Below, piece by piece: positions 22,846-63,015 of a DNA stretch of 64,000 nt. The DNA is from TPA_inf: Saccharomyces. Lineage: Eukaryota. The DNA is taken from positions 1,152,001 to 1,216,000 of the forward strand of contig BK006938.2 of assembly GCA_000146045.2 (NCBI GenBank), given 5' to 3'. A model generated the notes under the pieces. That model was not told the origin of the DNA, did not search any database, and worked only from the letters and a program-made list of their open reading frames with translations. Within the stretch, counting starts at the first letter, position 1, and the number at the start of each line of letters is the position of its first letter. The translations under genes were made by a program, and so were the position numbers.

Positions 22846-22968
22846 ATCGACCACCATCTATCGACTAGCATATTATCATATACGGTGTAAAAAGATGACA
22901 TAAAAGATGAGAAACAGGGTAATCCCAACAATTGTCTCAATATTTACCTATTTCTCACATTGTCACCG
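22846..22968 (+). repeat. Degenerate, internally deleted delta (Ty1/Ty2 LTR) fragment.
   Basis: GGAAGAAGAATCGACCACCATCTATCGACTAGCATATTATCATATACGGTG aligns to the delta 5' end. ...GGTAATCCCAACAATTGTCTCAATATTTACCTATTTCTCA aligns to the delta 3' end. The middle of the LTR is missing. Confidence 0.6.
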
Positions 22969-23315
22969 CTCGAAAGTGCATTTTATATACGTTCTTTTGT
23001 GACGACTACTTTTGGCGGGAATCTTAGCGCCTTAAATGCAGTGAAAGATTACTCTTTTGAGTTATTGCCTGAATTTTGTCTGCAAAATTGTTATTATTCA
23101 GGAATTTAGAATAATTCAACTCTGGAGGCCTGCGCTGTACTACGGGCTCAAGTAATACCGGAGTGTCTCGACAATCCTAATATAAACAGTCTTAGGGAAG
23201 TAACCAGTTGTCAAAACGGTTTATCAGATTAATTCACGGAATGTTACTTATCCTATATATTATATAAAATATGGATCATACTAAATGGTGGAAGCGCGGA
23301 ACCTTGGATCTAAAC

Positions 23316-23647
23316 TGTTGGAATAAGAATCCACTATCGTCTATCAACTAATAGTTGTACTATCAATATATTATCATATACGGTGTTAAGATGATGACAT
23401 AAGTTATGAGAAGCTGTCATCGAAGTTAGAGGAAGCTGAAGTGCAAGGATTGATAATGTAATAGGATAATGAAACATATAAAACGGAATGAGGAATAATC
23501 GTAATATTAGTATGTAGAAATATAGATTCCATTTAGAGGATTCCAATATCATCGAGGAGAACTTCTAGTATATTCTGTACACCTAATATTATAGCCTTTA
23601 TCAACAATGGAATCCCAACAAGTCTCTCAAAATACACCCATTTCTCA
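23316..23647 (+). repeat. Solo delta LTR of Ty1/Ty2 type, 332 bp, running TGTTGGAATA...ATTTCTCA.
   Basis: Full-length LTR with canonical termini and internal ATGGAATCCCAACAAG (the TYA start lies inside the LTR). No Ty internal sequence follows. Confidence 0.85.
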
Positions 23648-23828: not shown

Positions 23829-23901
23829 GCTTCAGTAGCTCAGTAGGAAGAGCGTCAGTCTCATAATCTGAAGGTCGAGAGTTCGAACCTCCCCTGGAGC
23901 A
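23829..23901 (+). tRNA. Elongator tRNA-Met, anticodon CAT, 73 nt.
   Basis: GCTTCAGTAGCTCAGTAGGAAGAGCGTCAGTCTCATAATCTGAAGGTCGAGAGTTCGAACCTCCCCTGGAGCA. It has a cloverleaf with A box TAGCTCAGTAGG and B box AGTTCGAACCT. The anticodon loop CTCATAA gives CAT. Confidence 0.95.
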
Positions 23902-46697: not shown

Positions 46698-46893
46698 CGC
46701 CACAACTTAATATATTATTACACGTATCGCAATGGAGCAAGTTAGAGAAATTTCGCTAATGGATCAAAGAGTACTAGCTTTAGTTTTTAGGACATGAAAC
46801 TGCTCTTACTGAGTAGAAATCAAAGCTTTAACAACTCATCCAGGCTTTCTCGAACAAAAAATGGAATGTTGTTTATCTTCTTTTGCAACGTAG

Positions 46894-46906
46894 GGTTTTC
46901 GAACCG
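46894..46906 (-). promoter_or_regulatory. B-box-like TFIIIC binding site (ETC-type) in the TFC6 promoter, about 200 bp upstream of the ATG.
   Basis: The minus strand reads CGGTTCGAAAACC. It matches the GGTTCGA core of the B-box consensus GGTTCGANTCC, and no tRNA gene is present. TFIIIC binding at the TFC6 promoter (ETC6) is established knowledge. Confidence 0.6.
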
Positions 46907-47182
46907 CAGCTTTCCGGGTGATACTGAATCCCTTCTATTTCCTTACAGAAGACAGCAAATTTTATTGTAGCATATAAGAAAAGAAATGACAGGCAGAGGA
47001 GGGACCAGCATGCCTATGAATTCCCAATACCATATATCACTTTGACAGCGTATATCGCAATTGAAATAGAACAACTTTTCATTATTACTTCAGAATTCAT
47101 TTTAAAGTGATTGCGAACACGGATTATAGCCCTGAACAATAAAAGGCAAGAGAAAAAATCATTTGTTTTAGGCTGTTAACAG

Positions 47183-48553: not shown

Positions 48554-49456
48554 GCGCAATTTGCTAAAAAAGGCCGAACTCCGGCTCTTTACGTGCCACA
48601 ATTATTATTTACTATGGGCGGCGGGTGTGTTGGTGGTGCTTGCGGTACTTGTAAAATATTTTCTGAATATAATTGAATAAGACCTTTTGTGTTTAAATCA
48701 TACTCGGGTAATTCTCTGTTCAAAAAGTAGGTGCTGACCCTCTTCTACCTTCCGTGAAATATTATAAAGGAATTTTTCCATCTCTAACTCAACATGTTAA
48801 CGCTTTTCTATAAAAATTTGATCGCCTAATGAATACAAAAATCTCTTCAGCTTTTTCGTGCTAGGTTTGAATAGTACATCTAACGTAGAACAACTATCAA
48901 AACAATTTGATATTTCCTCGGCTATAGTTTTCTTGGAACAAGAGGTAAACTACTTCTCTATTGTTGCTACAGCAGTCAATTAAAATAATTCGTTTCATCA
49001 TAATATTATGATATCAACGCTAAAAGGTTGTATAAATTACGAGATCAGCAGAAAATAAAATTCAAGCCATCATCCTTTAAGGTGATTTGAAGGGCAAGAA
49101 TTGGTAGTGTAACTGCATCAATGAGTGATTAGGTGAAAACGAAGAAAAATAATAAATATGGTACTGTGCAGAATTGTTGATTTTCTTTTTTGAACTCTAA
49201 ACCATCAAGAATGGCTTTCACCCACTATTGTTACACATAGTACTATTACTTACACCAAGATGGGATCCGACAAATATCTCAACACTATATTGGTCTACAT
49301 GCTTTATCGATTGCTCCTTATTTACGTATTTCTATAAATAGGGCGTACTTTACCAACAGTGATCATGGATGCAAAAAATGTGAATACATTTATATGGAAA
49401 AAAGGTTTATATCAATATATTTTAAAGTGATTGAAAATTACTGATGTGTTTGATAT

Positions 49457-49666
49457 TGTTGGAATAAGAATCAACCATCATATACCCGACTAACGTTCAT
49501 ATTATTAGTAAACTATCATATACAACCTAAGAAGTTGACATAAAGATTGACAAGCAGTTACCATTTTTAGTAGAAGTTGAAAAGCAAGAATTGATAACCA
49601 AATATTGTTTTCCAACAATGCAATCCCAACCCTATCTCAATATTCATAGAATTCACTTATTTCTCA
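49457..49666 (+). repeat. Diverged, internally shortened delta LTR (210 bp) about 85 bp upstream of tRNA-Lys.
   Basis: TGTTGGAATAAGAATCAACCATCATATAC...CACTTATTTCTCA termini; too short for a full 334 bp delta. Confidence 0.7.
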
Positions 49667-49749
49667 GTTTAATACATGATGATGCATCTTGATATTGAGA
49701 AATTATATGTATTATCCCTTTTTAACCTTTAAAAGGTCACAAATAAATA

Positions 49750-49822
49750 GCCTTGTTGGCGCAATCGGTAGCGCGTATGACTCTTAATCATAAGGTTAGG
49801 GGTTCGAGCCCCCTACAGGGCT
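49750..49822 (+). tRNA. tRNA-Lys, anticodon CTT, 73 nt.
   Basis: GCCTTGTTGGCGCAATCGGTAGCGCGTATGACTCTTAATCATAAGGTTAGGGGTTCGAGCCCCCTACAGGGCT. The anticodon loop CTCTTAA gives CTT. B box is GGTTCGAGCCC. Confidence 0.95.
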
Positions 49823-49847
49823 AATAACACATTCAAAATGTTATAAA

Positions 49848-52496: not shown

Positions 52497-54383
52497 TTAA
52501 ACCTTTACCTTCTTGGATGATTTGCTTTTCTTTTTCAACTTGTTTACCAAGTTACCAATATCTTCATTATCATCTGCGTTATTGGTCATATTGTTTTCAC
52601 TACCGCCAAGTTTTCTTTTCTTATTCTTAACACGTTTACTACGTTCTTTTAGGATTTTACTCATAGCTTGTGTACCTTTGAATTCAGGCTGGGTCGGGTC
52701 GATAGCAAAATCGTGATCTTCGAAGACTTCTTTAAATCTAGGATCTTCTAAATCAGGTGTAAAGGTGTCTTCAACAATTCTCTCTTTCTTTTGATACCGG
52801 CCTTTCTTGTGTTTTTCTTTTTCTGATCTTAAGATTTCGTTCATGTTGAAATGTGCTTTGTTATTTATTGTGCCCTGAGTTTCGGTATCATCATCATCAT
52901 CCATTAAAAGCTCCAATTCAGCCTTTGATTTGGCATTCTTTTCGATCTCCTCTTCATCGTTAGTATGCTTTTTATTAACAGATTTCAACTTGCTTTTCTT
53001 ATCCTTCTCCGACTGCTGTTTCAATTCCTTTACTTTCTGCTTTCTTGCTTTACGACGTTCCTTCTCTTTTCTTCTTATTTTCTCTATAGTCGTTTCTTCT
53101 TTGTCTTCCGACGATTTCTCGTTTCCTCCTTCCAAGGCTGGAGTAAATGTAATTTCCATATCAACTTCTTCATCTTCATCGTTAGGGGTTTCTTTCTTGG
53201 AATTAAACCCAAAGTCACCAACCAACGACTTTAGTTTATTTTTCGCCTCTTCATCGACCTGCCCATCCGATTCATCACTATCTGACGCCAAGTAAGCCTT
53301 AAAGTCCATATCATCAATTTCCTTTTGGGTAAAGGCCCTCTTAGCAACTTCGACCCTATCAGCTGGCGTTTCATCCCAGGTCAATTTGACGCTTGAATGT
53401 TGTAGAGCATCTGTGCTAAACTGGTGTGGCCTATAGTTCTTAGGCAATATACTGCATTCATCTCTTACATCATCATCAAAAGTCATACCATCAGGAACAT
53501 ACCTTAAATCGAACATATTAGCGGTTGACTCATATTCGGTACCATCACAGTTATCATAGATAGCTTTGGAGGTGGTTGTATCACTACAATAAACTATTGC
53601 GTAATAATATCTTAATCTGTCCAACTGGTATTGACGTAAAGCTCTGGAATCCACGTCCTTGTCAGCATCTCCCTCTTCATAAAGATCCTTAATACCGATG
53701 TCCATATCAGAATCAGAGTCATCAGTTTTCTTCTTTTTGGAGGTTTTGTTCTTATTTTTCTTTTGGAAAAGTTCCTTTGGAGGTCCTTCAACTTCCTCGC
53801 GTTGCATTCTTTCTTTACCAAATTCACTTGGATAAATAGCAACTCTTTCAATTTTACCACCTTTAGGAACGAAACTGGAAAAGGTAATCATCAAATCCTC
53901 AGATTTAACATGGTCCCAATCTAAATTTACGACGGCCAAATTCTTAGAGATGTCACCAGATTCTGGTTTGGCATTTTCAATTTCTACTTCATTTTCTTCT
54001 TCGCTTTCAACTTCACTTTCTCCGGACGATTCAGAATCAGAAGAAGTGAATTCATCAGAAGAGCTAACATAATCATCAGGAACTTCACCACGGGCACGGT
54101 CCACTACTGTTTTCGCATTAACTTCTGAATCTTCATCATTTTCTGCTTCCTTTTCGAAATATTTGTCGAAATCTTCCAATTCCCTGTTATTCTGCGCATT
54201 TTTGATCTTTCTACCATACTTGTCAACCTTAGATTTATGCTGGACCTCCAGATCCTTCTTACTGAACCTAGAATCTAACTTGATCTTATGATCTTTGGTT
54301 TTCGTGTTCTTAAATTTAGGATCGCTGTAGATCCCGGCAAACCTAGCATCTACACCTTCCTTCTTTGGGTTCTCTCCAGCCAT
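52497..54383 (-). CDS. ESF1: Nucleolar pre-rRNA processing protein, 628 aa, highly charged.
   Basis: ORF-track ORF is 634 aa. A start at MAGENPKKEG gives 628 aa. It has long acidic and basic low-complexity stretches typical of ESF1. Confidence 0.8.
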   Translation of the reverse strand: MAGENPKKEGVDARFAGIYSDPKFKNTKTKDHKIKLDSRFSKKDLEVQHKSKVDKYGRKIKNAQNNRELEDFDKYFEKEAENDEDSEVNAKTVVDRARGEVPDDYVSSSDEFTSSDSESSGESEVESEEENEVEIENAKPESGDISKNLAVVNLDWDHVKSEDLMITFSSFVPKGGKIERVAIYPSEFGKERMQREEVEGPPKELFQKKNKNKTSKKKKTDDSDSDMDIGIKDLYEEGDADKDVDSRALRQYQLDRLRYYYAIVYCSDTTTSKAIYDNCDGTEYESTANMFDLRYVPDGMTFDDDVRDECSILPKNYRPHQFSTDALQHSSVKLTWDETPADRVEVAKRAFTQKEIDDMDFKAYLASDSDESDGQVDEEAKNKLKSLVGDFGFNSKKETPNDEDEEVDMEITFTPALEGGNEKSSEDKEETTIEKIRRKEKERRKARKQKVKELKQQSEKDKKSKLKSVNKKHTNDEEEIEKNAKSKAELELLMDDDDDTETQGTINNKAHFNMNEILRSEKEKHKKGRYQKKERIVEDTFTPDLEDPRFKEVFEDHDFAIDPTQPEFKGTQAMSKILKERSKRVKNKKRKLGGSENNMTNNADDNEDIGNLVNKLKKKSKSSKKVKV

Positions 54384-54698
54384 CTTCAATTTTTCTTGCA
54401 ACCTTATACGATCCGCTGAAATGTCTTGAAAAATATTCCGGACCCACAGTTATGTGATATTTATTATTTGTACCATTATGCTAATGATGAATTTGAGATG
54501 AGATGAGATGAAATTTTTTCTGTAACTGAAAAATTTCGGAACGTCAATAATGATCGGTAGCCTCATCTGGGATATTTGGCCCGGCTCATATTGCTAATCT
54601 TTGGATATAGGGCTATTAGCAGATTTCAATCGTCCTCTCTTGGCATAGTAGACACAGAGTTGTATTTGCGCTTCTGAGCGATGCTTCCGAGATTGTTG

Positions 54699-54703
54699 AA
54701 GCA
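54699..54703. repeat. Ty1 target-site duplication AAGCA, left copy.
   Basis: The same 5 bp immediately follows the 3' LTR at 60622-60626. Confidence 0.85.
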
Positions 54704-55037
54704 TGTTGGAATAGAAATCAACTATCATCTACTAACTAGTATTTACATTACTAGTATATTATCATATACGGTGTTAGAAGATGACGCAAATGATGAGAAA
54801 TAGTCATCTAAATTAGTGGAAGCTGAAACGCAAGGATTGATAATGTAATAGGATCAATGAATATAAACATATAAAATGATGATAATAATATTTATAGAAT
54901 TGTGTAGAATTGCAGATTCCCTTTTATGGATTCCTAAATCCTTGAGGAGAACTTCTAGTATATTCTGTATACCTAATATTATAGCCTTTATCAACAATGG
55001 AATCCCAACAATTATCTCAACATTCACCCATTTCTCA
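54704..55037 (+). repeat. Ty1 5' LTR (delta), 334 bp.
   Basis: TGTTGGAATAGAAATCAAC...CATTCACCCATTTCTCA. Confidence 0.95.
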
Positions 55038-56319
55038 TGGTAGCGCCTGTGCTTCGGTTACTTCTAAGGAAGTCCACACAAATCAAGATCCGTTAGACGT
55101 TTCAGCTTCCAAAACAGAAGAATGTGAGAAGGCTTCCACTAAGGCTAACTCTCAACAGACAACAACACCTGCTTCATCAGCTGTTCCAGAGAACCCCCAT
55201 CATGCCTCTCCTCAACCTGCTTCAGTACCACCTCCACAGAATGGGCCGTACCCACAGCAGTGCATGATGACCCAAAACCAAGCCAATCCATCTGGTTGGT
55301 CATTTTACGGACACCCATCTATGATTCCGTATACACCTTATCAAATGTCGCCTATGTACTTTCCACCTGGGCCACAATCACAGTTTCCGCAGTATCCATC
55401 ATCAGTTGGAACGCCTCTGAGCACTCCATCACCTGAGTCAGGTAATACATTTACTGATTCATCCTCAGCGGACTCTGATATGACATCCACTAAAAAATAT
55501 GTCAGACCACCACCAATGTTAACCTCACCTAATGACTTTCCAAATTGGGTTAAAACATACATCAAATTTTTACAAAACTCGAATCTCGGTGGTATTATTC
55601 CGACAGTAAACGGAAAACCCGTACGTCAGATCACTGATGATGAACTCACCTTCTTGTATAACACTTTTCAAATATTTGCTCCCTCTCAATTCCTACCTAC
55701 CTGGGTCAAAGACATCCTATCCGTTGATTATACGGATATCATGAAAATTCTTTCCAAAAGTATTGAAAAAATGCAATCTGATACCCAAGAGGCAAACGAC
55801 ATTGTGACCCTGGCAAATTTGCAATATAATGGCAGTACACCTGCAGATGCATTTGAAACAAAAGTCACAAACATTATCGACAGACTGAACAATAATGGCA
55901 TTCATATCAATAACAAGGTCGCATGCCAATTAATTATGAGAGGTCTATCTGGCGAATATAAATTTTTACGCTACACACGTCATCGACATCTAAATATGAC
56001 AGTCGCTGAACTGTTCTTAGATATCCATGCTATTTATGAAGAACAACAGGGATCGAGAAACAGCAAACCTAATTACAGGAGAAATCTGAGTGATGAGAAG
56101 AATGATTCTCGCAGCTATACGAATACAACCAAACCCAAAGTTATAGCTCGGAATCCTCAAAAAACAAATAATTCGAAATCGAAAACAGCCAGGGCTCACA
56201 ATGTATCCACATCTAATAACTCTCCCAGCACGGACAACGATTCCATCAGTAAATCAACTACTGAACCGATTCAATTGAACAATAAGCACGACCTTCACCT
56301 TAGGCCAGGAACTTACTGA
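54997..56319 (+). CDS. TYA: Ty1 TYA (Gag) ORF, 440 aa.
   Basis: Starts inside the 5' LTR ([17 protein letters not shown]...). Q/P-rich N-terminus with a Gag-like core. Confidence 0.95.
55038..55047 (+). other. Ty1 minus-strand primer-binding site.
   Basis: TGGTAGCGCC directly 3' of the 5' LTR, complementary to the 3' end of initiator tRNA-Met. Confidence 0.85.
56299..56305 (+). promoter_or_regulatory. Ty1 +1 programmed ribosomal frameshift heptamer CTT-AGG-C.
   Basis: CTTAGGC is in the TYA reading frame (Leu435-Arg436) 14 nt before the TYA stop. The +1 frame continues into TYB. Confidence 0.9.
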
Positions 56320-59300
56320 ATCTACGGTAAATCACACTAATCATTCTGATGATGAACTCCCTGGACACCTCCTTCTCGATTCAGGAGCATCACGAACCCT
56401 TATAAGATCTGCTCATCACATACACTCAGCATCATCTAATCCTGACATAAACGTAGTTGATGCTCAAAAAAGAAATATACCAATTAACGCTATTGGTGAC
56501 CTACAATTTCACTTCCAGGACAACACCAAAACATCAATAAAGGTATTGCACACTCCTAACATAGCCTATGACTTACTCAGTTTGAATGAATTGGCTGCAG
56601 TAGATATCACAGCATGCTTTACCAAAAACGTCTTAGAACGATCTGACGGCACTGTACTTGCACCTATCGTACAATATGGAGACTTTTACTGGGTATCTAA
56701 AAGGTACTTGCTTCCATCAAATATCTCCGTACCCACCATCAATAATGTCCATACAAGTGAAAGTACACGCAAATATCCTTATCCTTTCATTCATCGAATG
56801 CTTGCGCATGCCAATGCACAGACAATTCGATACTCACTTAAAAATAACACCATCACGTATTTTAACGAATCAGATGTCGACTGGTCTAGTGCTATTGACT
56901 ATCAATGTCCTGATTGTTTAATCGGCAAAAGCACCAAACACAGACATATCAAAGGTTCACGACTAAAATACCAAAATTCATACGAACCCTTTCAATACCT
57001 ACATACTGACATATTTGGTCCAGTTCACAACCTACCAAATAGTGCACCATCCTATTTCATCTCATTTACTGATGAGACAACAAAATTCCGTTGGGTTTAT
57101 CCATTACACGACCGTCGCGAGGACTCTATCCTCGATGTTTTTACTACGATACTAGCTTTTATTAAGAACCAGTTTCAGGCCAGTGTCTTGGTTATACAAA
57201 TGGACCGTGGTTCTGAGTATACTAACAGAACTCTCCATAAATTCCTTGAAAAAAATGGTATAACTCCATGCTATACAACCACAGCGGATTCCCGAGCACA
57301 TGGAGTCGCTGAACGGCTAAACCGTACCTTATTAGATGACTGCCGTACTCAACTGCAATGTAGTGGTTTACCGAACTATTTATGGTTCTCTGCAATCGAA
57401 TTTTCTACTATTGTGAGAAATTCACTAGCTTCACCTAAAAGCAAAAAATCTGCAAGACAACATGCTGGCTTGGCAGGACTTGATATCAGTACTTTGTTAC
57501 CTTTCGGTCAACCTGTTATCGTCAATGATCACAACCCTAACTCCAAAATACATCCTCGTGGCATCCCAGGCTACGCTCTACATCCGTCTCGAAACTCTTA
57601 TGGATATATCATCTATCTTCCATCCTTAAAGAAGACAGTAGATACAACTAACTATGTTATTCTTCAGGGCAAGGAATCCAGATTAGATCAATTCAATTAC
57701 GACGCACTCACTTTCGATGAAGACTTAAACCGTTTAACTGCTTCATATCATTCGTTCATTGCGTCAAATGAGATCCAAGAATCCAATGATCTTAACATAG
57801 AATCTGACCATGACTTCCAATCCGACATTGAACTACATCCTGAGCAACCGAGAAATGTCCTTTCAAAAGCTGTGAGTCCAACCGATTCCACACCTCCGTC
57901 AACTCATACTGAAGATTCGAAACGTGTTTCTAAAACCAATATTCGCGCACCCAGAGAAGTTGACCCCAACATATCTGAATCTAATATTCTTCCATCAAAG
58001 AAGAGATCTAGCACCCCCCAAATTTCCAATATCGAGAGTACCGGTTCGGGTGGTATGCATAAATTAAATGTTCCTTTACTTGCTCCCATGTCCCAATCTA
58101 ACACACATGAGTCGTCGCACGCCAGTAAATCTAAAGATTTCAGACACTCAGACTCGTACAGTGAAAATGAGACTAATCATACAAACGTACCAATATCCAG
58201 TACGGGTGGTACCAACAACAAAACTGTTCCGCAGATAAGTGACCAAGAGACTGAGAAAAGGATTATACACCGTTCACCTTCAATCGATGCTTCTCCACCG
58301 GAAAATAATTCATCGCACAATATTGTTCCTATCAAAACGCCAACTACTGTTTCTGAACAGAATACCGAGGAATCTATCATCGCTGATCTCCCACTCCCTG
58401 ATCTACCTCCAGAATCTCCTACCGAATTCCCTGACCCATTTAAAGAACTCCCACCGATAAATTCTCGTCAAACTAATTCCAGTTTGGGTGGTATTGGTGA
58501 CTCTAATGCCTATACTACTATCAACAGTAAGAAAAGATCATTAGAAGATAATGAAACTGAAATTAAGGTATCACGAGACACATGGAATACTAAGAATATG
58601 CGTAGTTTAGAACCTCCGAGATCGAAGAAACGAATTCACCTGATTGCAGCTGTAAAAGCAGTAAAATCAATCAAACCAATACGGACAACCTTACGATACG
58701 ATGAGGCAATCACCTATAATAAAGATATTAAAGAAAAAGAAAAATATATCGAGGCATACCACAAAGAAGTCAATCAACTGTTGAAGATGAAAACTTGGGA
58801 CACTGACGAATATTATGACAGAAAAGAAATAGACCCTAAAAGAGTAATAAACTCAATGTTTATCTTCAACAAGAAACGTGACGGTACTCATAAAGCTAGA
58901 TTTGTTGCAAGAGGTGATATTCAGCATCCTGACACTTACGACTCAGGCATGCAATCCAATACCGTACATCACTATGCATTAATGACATCCCTGTCACTTG
59001 CATTAGACAATAACTACTATATTACACAATTAGACATATCTTCGGCATATTTGTATGCAGACATCAAAGAAGAATTATACATAAGACCTCCACCACATTT
59101 AGGAATGAATGATAAGTTGATACGTTTGAAGAAATCACTTTATGGATTGAAACAAAGTGGAGCGAACTGGTACGAAACTATCAAATCATACCTGATACAA
59201 CAATGTGGTATGGAAGAAGTTCGTGGATGGTCATGCGTATTTAAAAACAGTCAAGTGACAATTTGTTTATTCGTAGATGATATGGTATTGTTTAGCAAAA

Positions 59301-60265
59301 ATCTAAATTCAAACAAAAGAATTATAGAGAAGCTTAAGATGCAATACGACACCAAGATTATAAATCTAGGCGAAAGTGATGAGGAAATTCAATATGACAT
59401 ACTTGGCTTAGAAATCAAATATCAAAGAGGTAAATACATGAAATTAGGTATGGAAAACTCATTAACTGAGAAAATACCCAAATTAAACGTACCTTTGAAT
59501 CCAAAAGGAAGAAAACTTAGCGCTCCAGGTCAACCAGGTCTTTATATAGACCAGGATGAACTAGAAATAGATGAAGATGAATACAAAGAGAAGGTACATG
59601 AAATGCAAAAGTTGATTGGTCTAGCTTCATATGTTGGATATAAATTTAGATTTGACTTACTATACTACATCAACACACTTGCTCAACATATACTATTCCC
59701 CTCTAGGCAAGTTTTAGACATGACATATGAGTTAATACAATTCATGTGGGACACTAGAGATAAACAATTAATATGGCACAAAAACAAACCTACCAAGCCA
59801 GATAATAAACTAGTCGCAATAAGCGATGCTTCATATGGTAACCAACCATATTACAAGTCACAAATTGGTAACATTTTCCTACTCAACGGAAAAGTGATTG
59901 GAGGAAAGTCGACAAAGGCTTCGTTAACATGCACTTCAACTACAGAAGCAGAAATACACGCAGTCAGTGAAGCTATACCGCTATTGAATAACCTCAGTCA
60001 CCTTGTGCAAGAACTTAACAAGAAACCAATTATTAAAGGCTTACTTACTGATAGTAGATCAACGATCAGTATAATTAAGTCTACAAATGAAGAGAAATTT
60101 AGAAACAGATTTTTTGGCACAAAGGCAATGAGACTTAGAGATGAAGTATCAGGTAATAATTTATACGTATACTACATCGAGACCAAGAAGAACATTGCTG
60201 ATGTGATGACAAAACCTCTTCCGATAAAAACATTTAAACTATTAACTAACAAATGGATTCATTAG
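56305..60265 (+). CDS. TYB: Ty1 TYB (Pol: protease, integrase, reverse transcriptase, RNase H), expressed as a TYA-TYB fusion by +1 frameshift. The +1-frame segment after the slip site is given here.
   Basis: Continuous +1 frame from the slip site to the stop at 60265 (ORF-track ORF 56546..60265 is its Met-initiated subset). Motifs: LLDSGASRT (protease), H-x3-H...C-x2-C with DDE (integrase), LFVDDMVLF (RT). Confidence 0.9.
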
Positions 60266-60287
60266 ATCTATTACATTATGGGTGGTA

Positions 60288-60621
60288 TGTTGGAATAGAA
60301 ATCAACTATCATCTACTAACTAGTATTTACATTACTAGTATATTATCATATACGGTGTTAGAAGATGACGCAAATGATGAGAAATAGTCATCTAAATTAG
60401 TGGAAGCTGAAACGCAAGGATTGATAATGTAATAGGATCAATGAATATAAACATATAAAATGATGATAATAATATTTATAGAATTGTGTAGAATTGCAGA
60501 TTCCCTTTTATGGATTCCTAAATCCTTGAGGAGAACTTCTAGTATATTCTGTATACCTAATATTATAGCCTTTATCAACAATGGAATCCCAACAATTATC
60601 TCAACATTCACATATTTCTCA
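60288..60621 (+). repeat. Ty1 3' LTR (delta), 334 bp.
   Basis: Identical to the 5' LTR except CC to AT at LTR positions 324-325 (60611-60612 versus 55027-55028). Confidence 0.95.
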
Positions 60622-60836
60622 AAGCATATATGTAGTATATATACATATACATATATATATTTATATAGGTTTGGGAACCTATGTTTTTTATTGTACCAAA
60701 CGCATCCCTCTTCAATAATCTTCGAAAAAAAAGTGCACAACAAGCGGGAAAATCTGTGTAAAGCTGTATAAGTGATCTGTACAAAAACTACGAAGAAAAG
60801 AAATAATACCAGGGAGGAACTACCAATTGTAACCAT
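60438..60836 (-). CDS. Chimeric small ORF (132 aa) spanning the Ty1 3' LTR/flank junction; probably not a conserved protein gene.
   Basis: 184 bp of the ORF lie inside the LTR and 215 bp lie in AT-rich flank. It corresponds by position to annotated YDR366C as I recall. Its existence depends on the Ty insertion. Confidence 0.2.
60622..60626. repeat. Ty1 target-site duplication AAGCA, right copy.
   Basis: Matches 54699-54703. Confidence 0.85.
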
Positions 60837-60847
60837 TAACCTTAGTT

Positions 60848-61614
60848 ATGAGATCATCTCTTCTAACCCTTCCAAAAGTATGTTTCCGGCAAACGCTATA
60901 AATTTTTGTTAACTTGTAAGGATTCGAAGCAAAGCACAATTTTACTAACCTGTTCTCAAACATATTTTTTTTTCATAGTCTTTTTTGGGGTTTATGCCGC
61001 TATACCTTGCAGTTGAGATTGTCTTAGGTATTTCCATTCTAAACAAATGCAGTGGTGCTTATGGTATTTTAGCATTGTTCACGGGTCATCCGTTGGATTT
61101 TATGCAATGGATAGCATATCTTTGGTCGGTATTTACATTAATCGTATTCTCACAAGGGCTGTATTTGATTCATAAGCCAAACTTGCTGGTATTTTCGCAA
61201 ATCTGCGTACTTTATACAATCGATACCATTTCCACTTGTTTTTTTACTCTATGGTTTACCACGCAATGGTTCACCTTGGAAGACACTGCTAATATTGATG
61301 GAAATAATGCACTACAAAGTAACCCAATATCGACAGGTAAGCTGACAGAACGTGGTATTGATATAAGTAAACAAAGTGCAACTGAAAGCTACGAATATAC
61401 CATGACTATTTTAATTACGTTGGTGTCATTGATATTCAGGTTCTACTTTAACTTCATTTTGGCATCTTTTGTTCAAGAATTGTTACACCACCCCAAATAT
61501 TTAGTTGATAGGGATGACGTAGAACAAAACTTGAAAAACAAGCCTATTTGGAAAAGACTGTGGGCTAAGAGCCAAAAAGGTTGTTATAAGCTATGTAAGA
61601 ATTTGTTAGAGTAA
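60848..61614 (+). CDS. KEI1: Kex2-cleavable Golgi protein, a component of inositol phosphorylceramide synthase, 221 aa. It is spliced as exon 1 (60848..60877) plus exon 2 (60979..61614).
   Basis: Exon 1 ATGAGATCATCTCTTCTAACCCTTCCAAAA (MRSSLLTLPK) ends at the GTATGT donor. Branch point TACTAAC is at 60943-60949 and the acceptor CATAG is at 60974-60978. Exon 2 continues in frame (SFLGFMPLYLAVEIVLG...) into the ORF-track ORF 60985..61614, which itself begins at a TTG. Exon 1 (10) plus exon 2 (211) codons total 221 aa. Confidence 0.8.
60878..60978 (+). other. Spliceosomal intron of KEI1, 101 nt.
   Basis: Donor GTATGT, branch point TACTAAC 29 nt upstream of the acceptor, poly-T tract and acceptor AG. 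Confidence 0.8.
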
Positions 61615-61903
61615 ATAGTAAAATAAAGCCCTAGCGTTATAGCGTTTTACACTGATGAAGAAATGTTTCTATTCTGACATCATAAAATCATTCTCACTGA
61701 TGCTATTGTCACTTTTCATCACGTGTGTATTTAAGTAGCTCTTACGTAATTTTGAAAAAAAAGGAAAAAGGAAACTATATAGCACGCAATTCCCTATTTG
61801 GTTGCAATTCAATTCCGTGAAACCCTTTTCTTTTCTAAAGTGATAATAAAGTAACTTTGCAATATAATCAGGTCGCAAATATACCCACAGATAATAATCT
61901 ACC

Positions 61904-62842
61904 ATGCCTGCTACGTTAAAGAATTCTTCTGCTACATTAAAACTAAATACTGGTGCCTCCATTCCAGTGTTGGGTTTCGGCACTTGGCGTTCCGTTGACA
62001 ATAACGGTTACCATTCTGTAATTGCAGCTTTGAAAGCTGGATACAGACACATTGATGCTGCGGCTATCTATTTGAATGAAGAAGAAGTTGGCAGGGCTAT
62101 TAAAGATTCCGGAGTCCCTCGTGAGGAAATTTTTATTACTACTAAGCTTTGGGGTACGGAACAACGTGATCCGGAAGCTGCTCTAAACAAGTCTTTGAAA
62201 AGACTAGGCTTGGATTATGTTGACCTATATCTGATGCATTGGCCAGTGCCTTTGAAAACCGACAGAGTTACTGATGGTAACGTTCTGTGCATTCCAACAT
62301 TAGAAGATGGCACTGTTGACATCGATACTAAGGAATGGAATTTTATCAAGACGTGGGAGTTGATGCAAGAGTTGCCAAAGACGGGCAAAACTAAAGCCGT
62401 TGGTGTCTCTAATTTTTCTATTAACAACATTAAAGAATTATTAGAATCTCCAAATAACAAGGTGGTACCAGCTACTAATCAAATTGAAATTCATCCATTG
62501 CTACCACAAGACGAATTGATTGCCTTTTGTAAGGAAAAGGGTATTGTTGTTGAAGCCTACTCACCATTTGGGAGTGCTAATGCTCCTTTACTAAAAGAGC
62601 AAGCAATTATTGATATGGCTAAAAAGCACGGCGTTGAGCCAGCACAGCTTATTATCAGTTGGAGTATTCAAAGAGGCTACGTTGTTCTGGCCAAATCGGT
62701 TAATCCTGAAAGAATTGTATCCAATTTTAAGATTTTCACTCTGCCTGAGGATGATTTCAAGACTATTAGTAACCTATCCAAAGTGCATGGTACAAAGAGA
62801 GTCGTTGATATGAAGTGGGGATCCTTCCCAATTTTCCAATGA
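61904..62842 (+). CDS. YPR1: NADPH-dependent aldo-keto reductase, 312 aa.
   Basis: AKR family signature (GYRHIDAAAIY, LGLDYVDLYLMHWP, IEIHPLLPQ). Highly similar to GCY1-type reductases. Confidence 0.85.
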   Translation: MPATLKNSSATLKLNTGASIPVLGFGTWRSVDNNGYHSVIAALKAGYRHIDAAAIYLNEEEVGRAIKDSGVPREEIFITTKLWGTEQRDPEAALNKSLKRLGLDYVDLYLMHWPVPLKTDRVTDGNVLCIPTLEDGTVDIDTKEWNFIKTWELMQELPKTGKTKAVGVSNFSINNIKELLESPNNKVVPATNQIEIHPLLPQDELIAFCKEKGIVVEAYSPFGSANAPLLKEQAIIDMAKKHGVEPAQLIISWSIQRGYVVLAKSVNPERIVSNFKIFTLPEDDFKTISNLSKVHGTKRVVDMKWGSFPIFQ

Positions 62843-63015
62843 GCGCGCTACATTACAGTTAATGCCTCCAGCAACCTGTAGTGCTTCTTTAAACCGATCC
62901 GATACAGCTGAAACAAACATTGATTTTACTAATTTTCATATAATATATACACATATATCGAATGATAATGCAAAATATAATTTAATGAAATTGGAAATAC
63001 TCGGAAAATTTATCA

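Follow-up and report, generated by a model that had tools for sequence, protein, structure and literature searches.

The window analysed here is the whole 64-kb stretch of Saccharomyces contig BK006938.2 from position 1,152,001 to position 1,216,000, and positions below are counted from its first letter. Between the genes ESF1 and KEI1, the window contains a full-length Ty1 retrotransposon, which we identify as YDRWTy1-5 of the S. cerevisiae reference strain S288C. A repeat search of positions 53000-62500 returned a long direct-repeat pair at 54703-55002 and 60287-60586, spaced 5,584 bp apart. Read base by base, both long terminal repeats (LTRs) start with TGTTGG and finish with TTCTCA, which gives the Ty1 a span of 54704-60621 and a length of 5,918 bp; the AAGCA on its 5' side is identical to the AAGCA on its 3' side. 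The features of the element are the following:

54699..54703, no strand: left copy of the target-site duplication (TSD), AAGCA, from reading of the end
54704..55037, + strand: 5' LTR (delta), 334 bp, TG...CA, with a Ty2-type U3, from the base-by-base comparison
55038..55047, + strand: primer-binding site (PBS) TGGTAGCGCC, directly 3' of the 5' LTR
54997..56319, + strand: TYA (Gag) open reading frame (ORF), 440 amino acids, with its start codon within the 5' LTR (Pfam TYA, E=1.8e-232)
56299..56305, + strand: +1 frameshift heptamer CTTAGGC, with CTT in TYA frame 0
56303..60265, + strand: TYB (Pol) frame after the frameshift, with protease, integrase, and reverse transcriptase/RNase H
60280..60287, + strand: polypurine tract (PPT) GGGTGGTA, which abuts the 3' LTR
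60288..60621, + strand: 3' LTR, 334 bp, the same as the 5' LTR at 332 of 334 positions
60622..60626, no strand: right copy of the TSD, AAGCA, from reading of the end

The two mismatches between the LTRs are confined to LTR positions 325-326, in U5, where the 5' LTR has CC (55028-55029) and the 3' LTR has AT (60612-60613). A 334-bp repeat with 99.4% identity and an identical flanking 5-mer is far beyond chance. The PBS of Ty1 pairs with the 3' end of the initiator tRNA-Met. The heptamer CTTAGGC is present as a single copy within the element, and skipping base 56302 yields a Gag-Pol protein of 1,755 amino acids with no internal stop. In a Pfam search, the fusion protein matched TYA (residues 17-400), Pol_BBD (459-533), rve (663-763), SH3_retrovirus (829-890), and RVT_2 (1281-1487). 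The Pol domains are thus ordered as protease (the Pol_BBD beta-barrel region), integrase core, retroviral SH3-like domain, and RVT_2, which is the order of Ty1/copia. The LTRs, the 5-bp TSD, the PBS and PPT, the TYA/TYB +1 frameshift, and the domain order together place the element in Ty1 (Ty1/copia, Pseudoviridae).

An earlier note on this stretch, made from the sequence alone, had described a perfect AAGCA duplication, LTRs identical at 332 of 334 positions, an intact PBS and PPT, and open TYA and TYB frames with the canonical CTTAGGC. Every part of this anatomy was recovered on re-reading, including the PBS at 55038 and the PPT at 60280, each of which abuts its LTR. As judged from its letters, the element lacks none of the cis and coding features that a further round of retrotransposition requires, and this copy may still be mobile.

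Exact-sequence look-ups matched the Gag-Pol protein to NP_058152.1 / P0C2I3, the Ty1-DR6 Gag-Pol polyprotein of S288C YDR365W-B, and the Gag protein, residue for residue, to S288C NP_058153.3. The products of ESF1, YPR1, and YDR366C are likewise exact S288C proteins. The SGD name YDRWTy1-5 corresponds to YDR365W-A (TYA) and YDR365W-B (TYB), a pairing that we take from published coordinates together with SGD nomenclature. In File S2 of Carr, Bensasson and Bergman (2012), YDRWTy1-5 is a full-length element of 5,918 bp on the + strand of chrIV at 1206697-1212614 (PMC3511429). The offset that relates the two coordinate systems (window coordinate + 1,151,993) also puts the solo LTR st51 of that study (1201450) on an LTR remnant at window position 49457. 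Chromosome rearrangements with a breakpoint at YDRWTy1-5 have been described under that name (PMC3102749), and an engineered duplication of 105 kb is bounded by the element on one side (PMC11406185). The element and its strain distribution are therefore already known: it is annotated and published, and it is a routine recombination substrate. Nothing that we found contradicts the identification.

To follow the distribution of the insertion, we used 10 further S. cerevisiae assemblies at chromosome scale, each with an identical ESF1 protein, and examined the neighborhood of ESF1 in each. The spacing between KEI1 and ESF1 is about 540 bp in every one of the ten, and the interval contains no Ty gene. 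Exact flank strings matched eight of these loci, and at base level each of the eight has the 5-mer once and no LTR. The sequence of the empty site is ...GATTGTTG-AAGCA-TATATGTAG... in five loci, and a TAGCA variant is present in three. The remaining two loci diverge at the left flank probe, and their gene spacing is unchanged. The variant loci (L002, L004, and L007) carry a single-nucleotide polymorphism at the first base of the target 5-mer, which corresponds to window position 54699; S288C and five others have AAGCA.

One assembly, L011, was the only one recovered through the junction-spanning ORF YDR366C. Over 11,563 bp, a stretch that includes the Ty1, it matches the window with 100% identity, and it is for this reason placed in the S288C lineage. 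In Carr et al. (2012), 19 strains had data for YDRWTy1-5 and one of them carried it, a frequency of 0.05; the element was put in class 's288c' and scored 'Full, Active' (PMC3511429). Full-length Ty copies are largely strain-specific and recent (PMC4022208; ScRAP preprint), and SK1 and S288C have only one Ty in common (PMC3757047). The earlier note had described the element as young and strain-specific, and had suggested that other strain assemblies be checked for an empty site with AAGCA once. The description agrees with the empty site in all ten other assemblies and in 18 of the 19 strains scored by Carr et al.; the check, at base level, showed the 5-mer once in the eight matched loci, as AAGCA in five and TAGCA in three. 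Among the strains examined, these data support a recent insertion that is confined to the S288C laboratory lineage.

Both versions of LTR positions 325-326, ...TTCACCCATTTCTCA and ...TTCACATATTTCTCA, are present among other Ty1 LTRs of S288C (File S6 of Carr et al. 2012). That the CC/AT differences are adjacent suggests a single event, through recombination, conversion, or reverse transcription of a mixed RNA pair, which is more economical than two point mutations. On this reading, the 332/334 identity should not be converted into an age, LTR divergence being a poor clock here.

The alignment of Carr et al. contains two sharply distinct U3 types among its 41 'active Ty1' LTRs. The string AACTATCATCTACTAACTAGTATTTAC is found in 18 of the 41, and also in the Ty2 locus files, while the canonical CACTATCGTCTATCAACTAATAGTTAT is found in the other 23. 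In YDRWTy1-5, both LTRs carry AACTATCATCTACTAACTAGTATTTAC (at 54720 and 60304), and neither carries the canonical string. Eighteen Ty1/Ty2 hybrids have been reported among the 32 full-length Ty1 copies of S288C, with a Ty2-derived segment in the 3' part of TYB (PMC4022208). The number of LTRs with the Ty2-type U3 equals the number of reported hybrids, which places the element, by its U3, in the hybrid subclass. Judged by this part of the LTR, YDRWTy1-5 is a Ty1/Ty2 recombinant and not a canonical Ty1.

ARAGORN and Rfam found only two tRNA genes in the window, tRNA-Met at 23829-23901 and tRNA-Lys(CUU) at 49749-49823. The Ty1 starts 4,880 bp past the 3' end of tRNA-Lys, on its downstream side, and CDC40 and ESF1 lie between the two. 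The Ty1 integrase is tethered through AC40, which directs it to a window of ~1 kb upstream of genes that RNA polymerase III (Pol III) transcribes (PMC7459421). About 90% of the S288C sites of Ty1-Ty4 lie close to a Pol III gene, and Ty elements are seldom found in RNA polymerase II (Pol II) promoters (PMC3757047). YDRWTy1-5 departs from the typical placement ~1 kb upstream of a Pol III gene. Its membership in Ty1 is unaffected by this, because proximity to Pol III genes is a tendency (~90%). The distance of about 5 kb to tRNA-Lys in the earlier note is borne out by our measurement. Its description of the site as unusual holds in that the element lies outside the ~1-kb window, but the site only makes the element a member of a known minority: YDRWTy1-5 falls among the ~10% of Ty insertions that lie away from Pol III genes, and its integration would have taken place without Pol III (AC40) tethering.

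The remainder of the window shows what the targeted pattern looks like. Each tRNA gene has LTR remnants close by on its upstream side, at 22864-23647 (tRNA-Met) and at 49088-49646 (tRNA-Lys). They consist of degenerate solo LTR fragments of the Ty1/Ty2 type (22864-22957, 23316-23647, 49088-49201, and 49457-49646) with 70-87% identity to the LTR of YDRWTy1-5. These remnants are the normal Pol III-targeted pattern, unlike the position of YDRWTy1-5. The LTR search of the window found no other Ty or LTR remnant near the ESF1-KEI1 site. We also considered a local Ty hotspot between ESF1 and KEI1 and rejected it, as the LTR fragments in the window are all upstream of one or the other tRNA gene.

Several scans were directed at a Pol III or TFIIIC target that annotation might have missed. 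Across the whole window, ARAGORN and Rfam at gathering thresholds found no Pol III gene within 4.9 kb of the Ty1. With the Rfam threshold relaxed to E<=1 over 52500-63000, the only match was a chance microRNA-like one in the AT-rich flank, which scored 25 bits where the gathering score is 100. In a scan that recovered both real tRNA genes as positive controls, no pair of an A-box and a B-box lay closer than 1.5 kb to the empty site as reconstructed. A B-box-like 11-mer, GCTTCGAATCC, is located at 60920-60930 on the - strand, in the KEI1 intron; it is one mismatch from GGTTCGANTCC and has no A-box partner, and the insertion point is 294 bp away. As 1.72 such matches are expected per window, and 49 of 100 shuffles contained at least two, this match is at chance level.

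The TFIIIC gene TFC6 (YDR362C) is located at ~44.7-46.7 kb of the window. The divergent TFC6-ESC2 promoter (~46698-47182) carries GGTTCGAAAACCC on the - strand, ~7.5 kb from the Ty1. We take GGTTCGAAAACCC in the TFC6 promoter to be, presumably, the ETC6 TFIIIC site. The strict B-box patterns gave no match in the TFC6-ESC2 intergenic region.

We are very nearly certain that the element is the annotated S288C reference copy YDRWTy1-5, inserted by integrase, recent, confined to the S288C lineage among the strains examined, of the hybrid subclass, and one of the Pol III-distant minority. Some points limit parts of this reading. 'Active' in Carr et al. (2012) is a phylogenetic label. In TYB, amino acid differences from five other S288C Ty1 copies cluster at residues ~1400-1700, which is compatible with a Ty2 origin of that part. 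Lastly, the strict scan misses the TFC6 promoter, so that, if ETC6 is located there, sequence scans may be insensitive to TFIIIC-only (ETC) sites. This last point, together with the single one-mismatch match to GGTTCGANTCC close to the insertion point, speaks for the alternative that the element was tethered in the usual way, through an unannotated Pol III gene or an ETC site such as GCTTCGAATCC. We consider this alternative very improbable. The frequency of GCTTCGAATCC-like matches in shuffled sequence argues against it, and GCTTCGAATCC does not match the first G of the 9-nt consensus GWTCRANNC. The paired-box scan was blank at the empty site while it recovered both tRNA genes, and ARAGORN and Rfam were blank for Pol III genes even at the relaxed threshold. 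Moreover, for a site on the minus strand at this position the Ty1 would be downstream, outside the upstream targeting window, and solo LTRs have not accumulated between ESF1 and KEI1 as they have at both tRNA genes. A cryptic Pol III target near ESF1-KEI1 was therefore not supported by the ARAGORN, Rfam, B-box, or A-box plus B-box scans, which may miss ETC-type sites.

The second alternative concerns the age and mode of the insertion. An old element could have been kept young-looking by gene conversion between its LTRs, or the element could have recombined homologously into a solo LTR that was already present. In its favor, both of the adjacent LTR differences are standing variants of other Ty1 LTRs, which indicates that this element, or the one from which it derives, has taken part in recombination between copies. 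We give this alternative almost no weight. The empty site is clean and free of LTR sequence in all ten other assemblies and in 18 of 19 SGRP strains, and the perfect 5-bp TSD is a signature of integrase and not of recombination into an LTR. On the strength of the duplication and the clean empty sites, we read the insertion as mediated by integrase.

Under the reading of a recent integrase-mediated insertion, the Ty1 integrase would have made a staggered 5-bp cut at AAGCA within the 541-bp ESF1-KEI1 region, with insertion and duplication of the target following. The event would have occurred without Pol III (AC40) tethering, into a Pol II promoter region outside the ~1-kb window upstream of Pol III genes, and it would be recent and, among the strains examined, confined to the S288C laboratory lineage. 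The overall picture in the earlier note was of a strain-specific Ty1, young and intact, that lies far from tRNA genes in the divergent promoter of ESF1 and KEI1. This picture agrees with the structure, the empty sites, and the Pol III scans.

The genes on either side of the element, and the ORF that spans its right junction, are the following:

52497..54383, - strand: ESF1 (YDR365C), divergent from the 5' LTR; Pfam RRM_ESF1 and NUC153, exact match to ESF1_YEAST
60848..61614, + strand: KEI1 (YDR367W), in the same orientation as the Ty1, with an intron at 60878-60978; Pfam Kei1 on the orthologues in L001-L011
60438..60836, - strand: MOR1/YDR366C, 132 codons, from reading of the ORF and an exact S288C protein match

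A distance of 320 bp separates the ESF1 ATG (54383, - strand) from the 5' LTR, and one of 226 bp separates the KEI1 ATG (60848) from the 3' LTR, so that ESF1 retains 320 bp and KEI1 226 bp of native upstream DNA. In the reconstruction, the intergenic region without the element measures 541 bp. The re-measured distances are those that the earlier note had given for an insertion dividing a divergent promoter of about 540 bp. The 5' LTR and the enhancer region inside TYA are back-to-back with ESF1, and KEI1 follows the 3' LTR in tandem. A 5' Ty end that is divergent from a gene is the classical arrangement of ROAM alleles, and ESF1 and KEI1 are essential genes. An effect of the element on ESF1, through ROAM-like divergence, or on KEI1, through the adjacent 3' LTR, may follow from this geometry, in line with the strain-specific expression effects that the earlier note had predicted. 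A literature search for Ty1 together with ESF1 or KEI1 returned nothing relevant on expression effects.

The insertion also changed an ORF. Codons 1-71 of MOR1 are unique DNA beside KEI1, and the antisense strand of the 3' LTR supplies its last 61 codons (72-132) together with the stop. Its ATG is 12 bp from that of KEI1, on the opposite strand, and 215 bp of the native upstream DNA of KEI1 (60622-60836) are wholly within the MOR1 ORF. From the MOR1 ATG, strains with the empty site encode a different ORF, one of 95 residues. In a collection of ~15 billion proteins, the 132-residue MOR1 protein occurs on only three contigs. Given the 61 LTR-encoded codons, the 95-residue ORF of the empty site, and the three contigs, annotated Mor1 exists only where YDRWTy1-5 exists. 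YDR366C was named MOR1 following an overexpression screen for mitochondrial morphology (PMC6683748).

We regard it as unlikely that the insertion of YDRWTy1-5 created a lineage-specific protein-coding gene, MOR1, and perhaps also rewired the use of the ESF1/KEI1 promoters. If native Mor1 were expressed in S288C and were the source of the reported mitochondrial-morphology activity, a named gene would be a very young, Ty1-born chimera that is absent from most of the species. In any case, annotated Mor1 is half LTR-encoded and specific to genomes with YDRWTy1-5. Comparisons of ESF1, KEI1, or MOR1 between S288C-derived and other strains involve a 5.9 kb Ty1 in the shared promoter of S288C. The discovery value of the element itself is small: it is annotated, its presence and absence have been published, and its anatomy had already been described accurately from sequence.

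Compared with YDRWTy1-5 as annotated (YDR365W-A / YDR365W-B; Ty1-DR6), the element in the window is the same one, without differences; its length, its strand, and its distance to the neighboring solo LTR are as published. Like members of the S288C hybrid subclass of Ty1/Ty2, it has the Ty2-type U3, and the canonical Ty1 U3 string is absent. It resembles the Ty insertions described in Pol II promoters (his4-912/917, ura3, and the CAN1 promoter; ROAM alleles) in that the Ty lies in the 5' region of a gene with its 5' end divergent from it, here ESF1. However, the insertions at his4-912/917, ura3, and CAN1 were selected by phenotype, whereas YDRWTy1-5 is an unselected resident of the genome between two essential genes.

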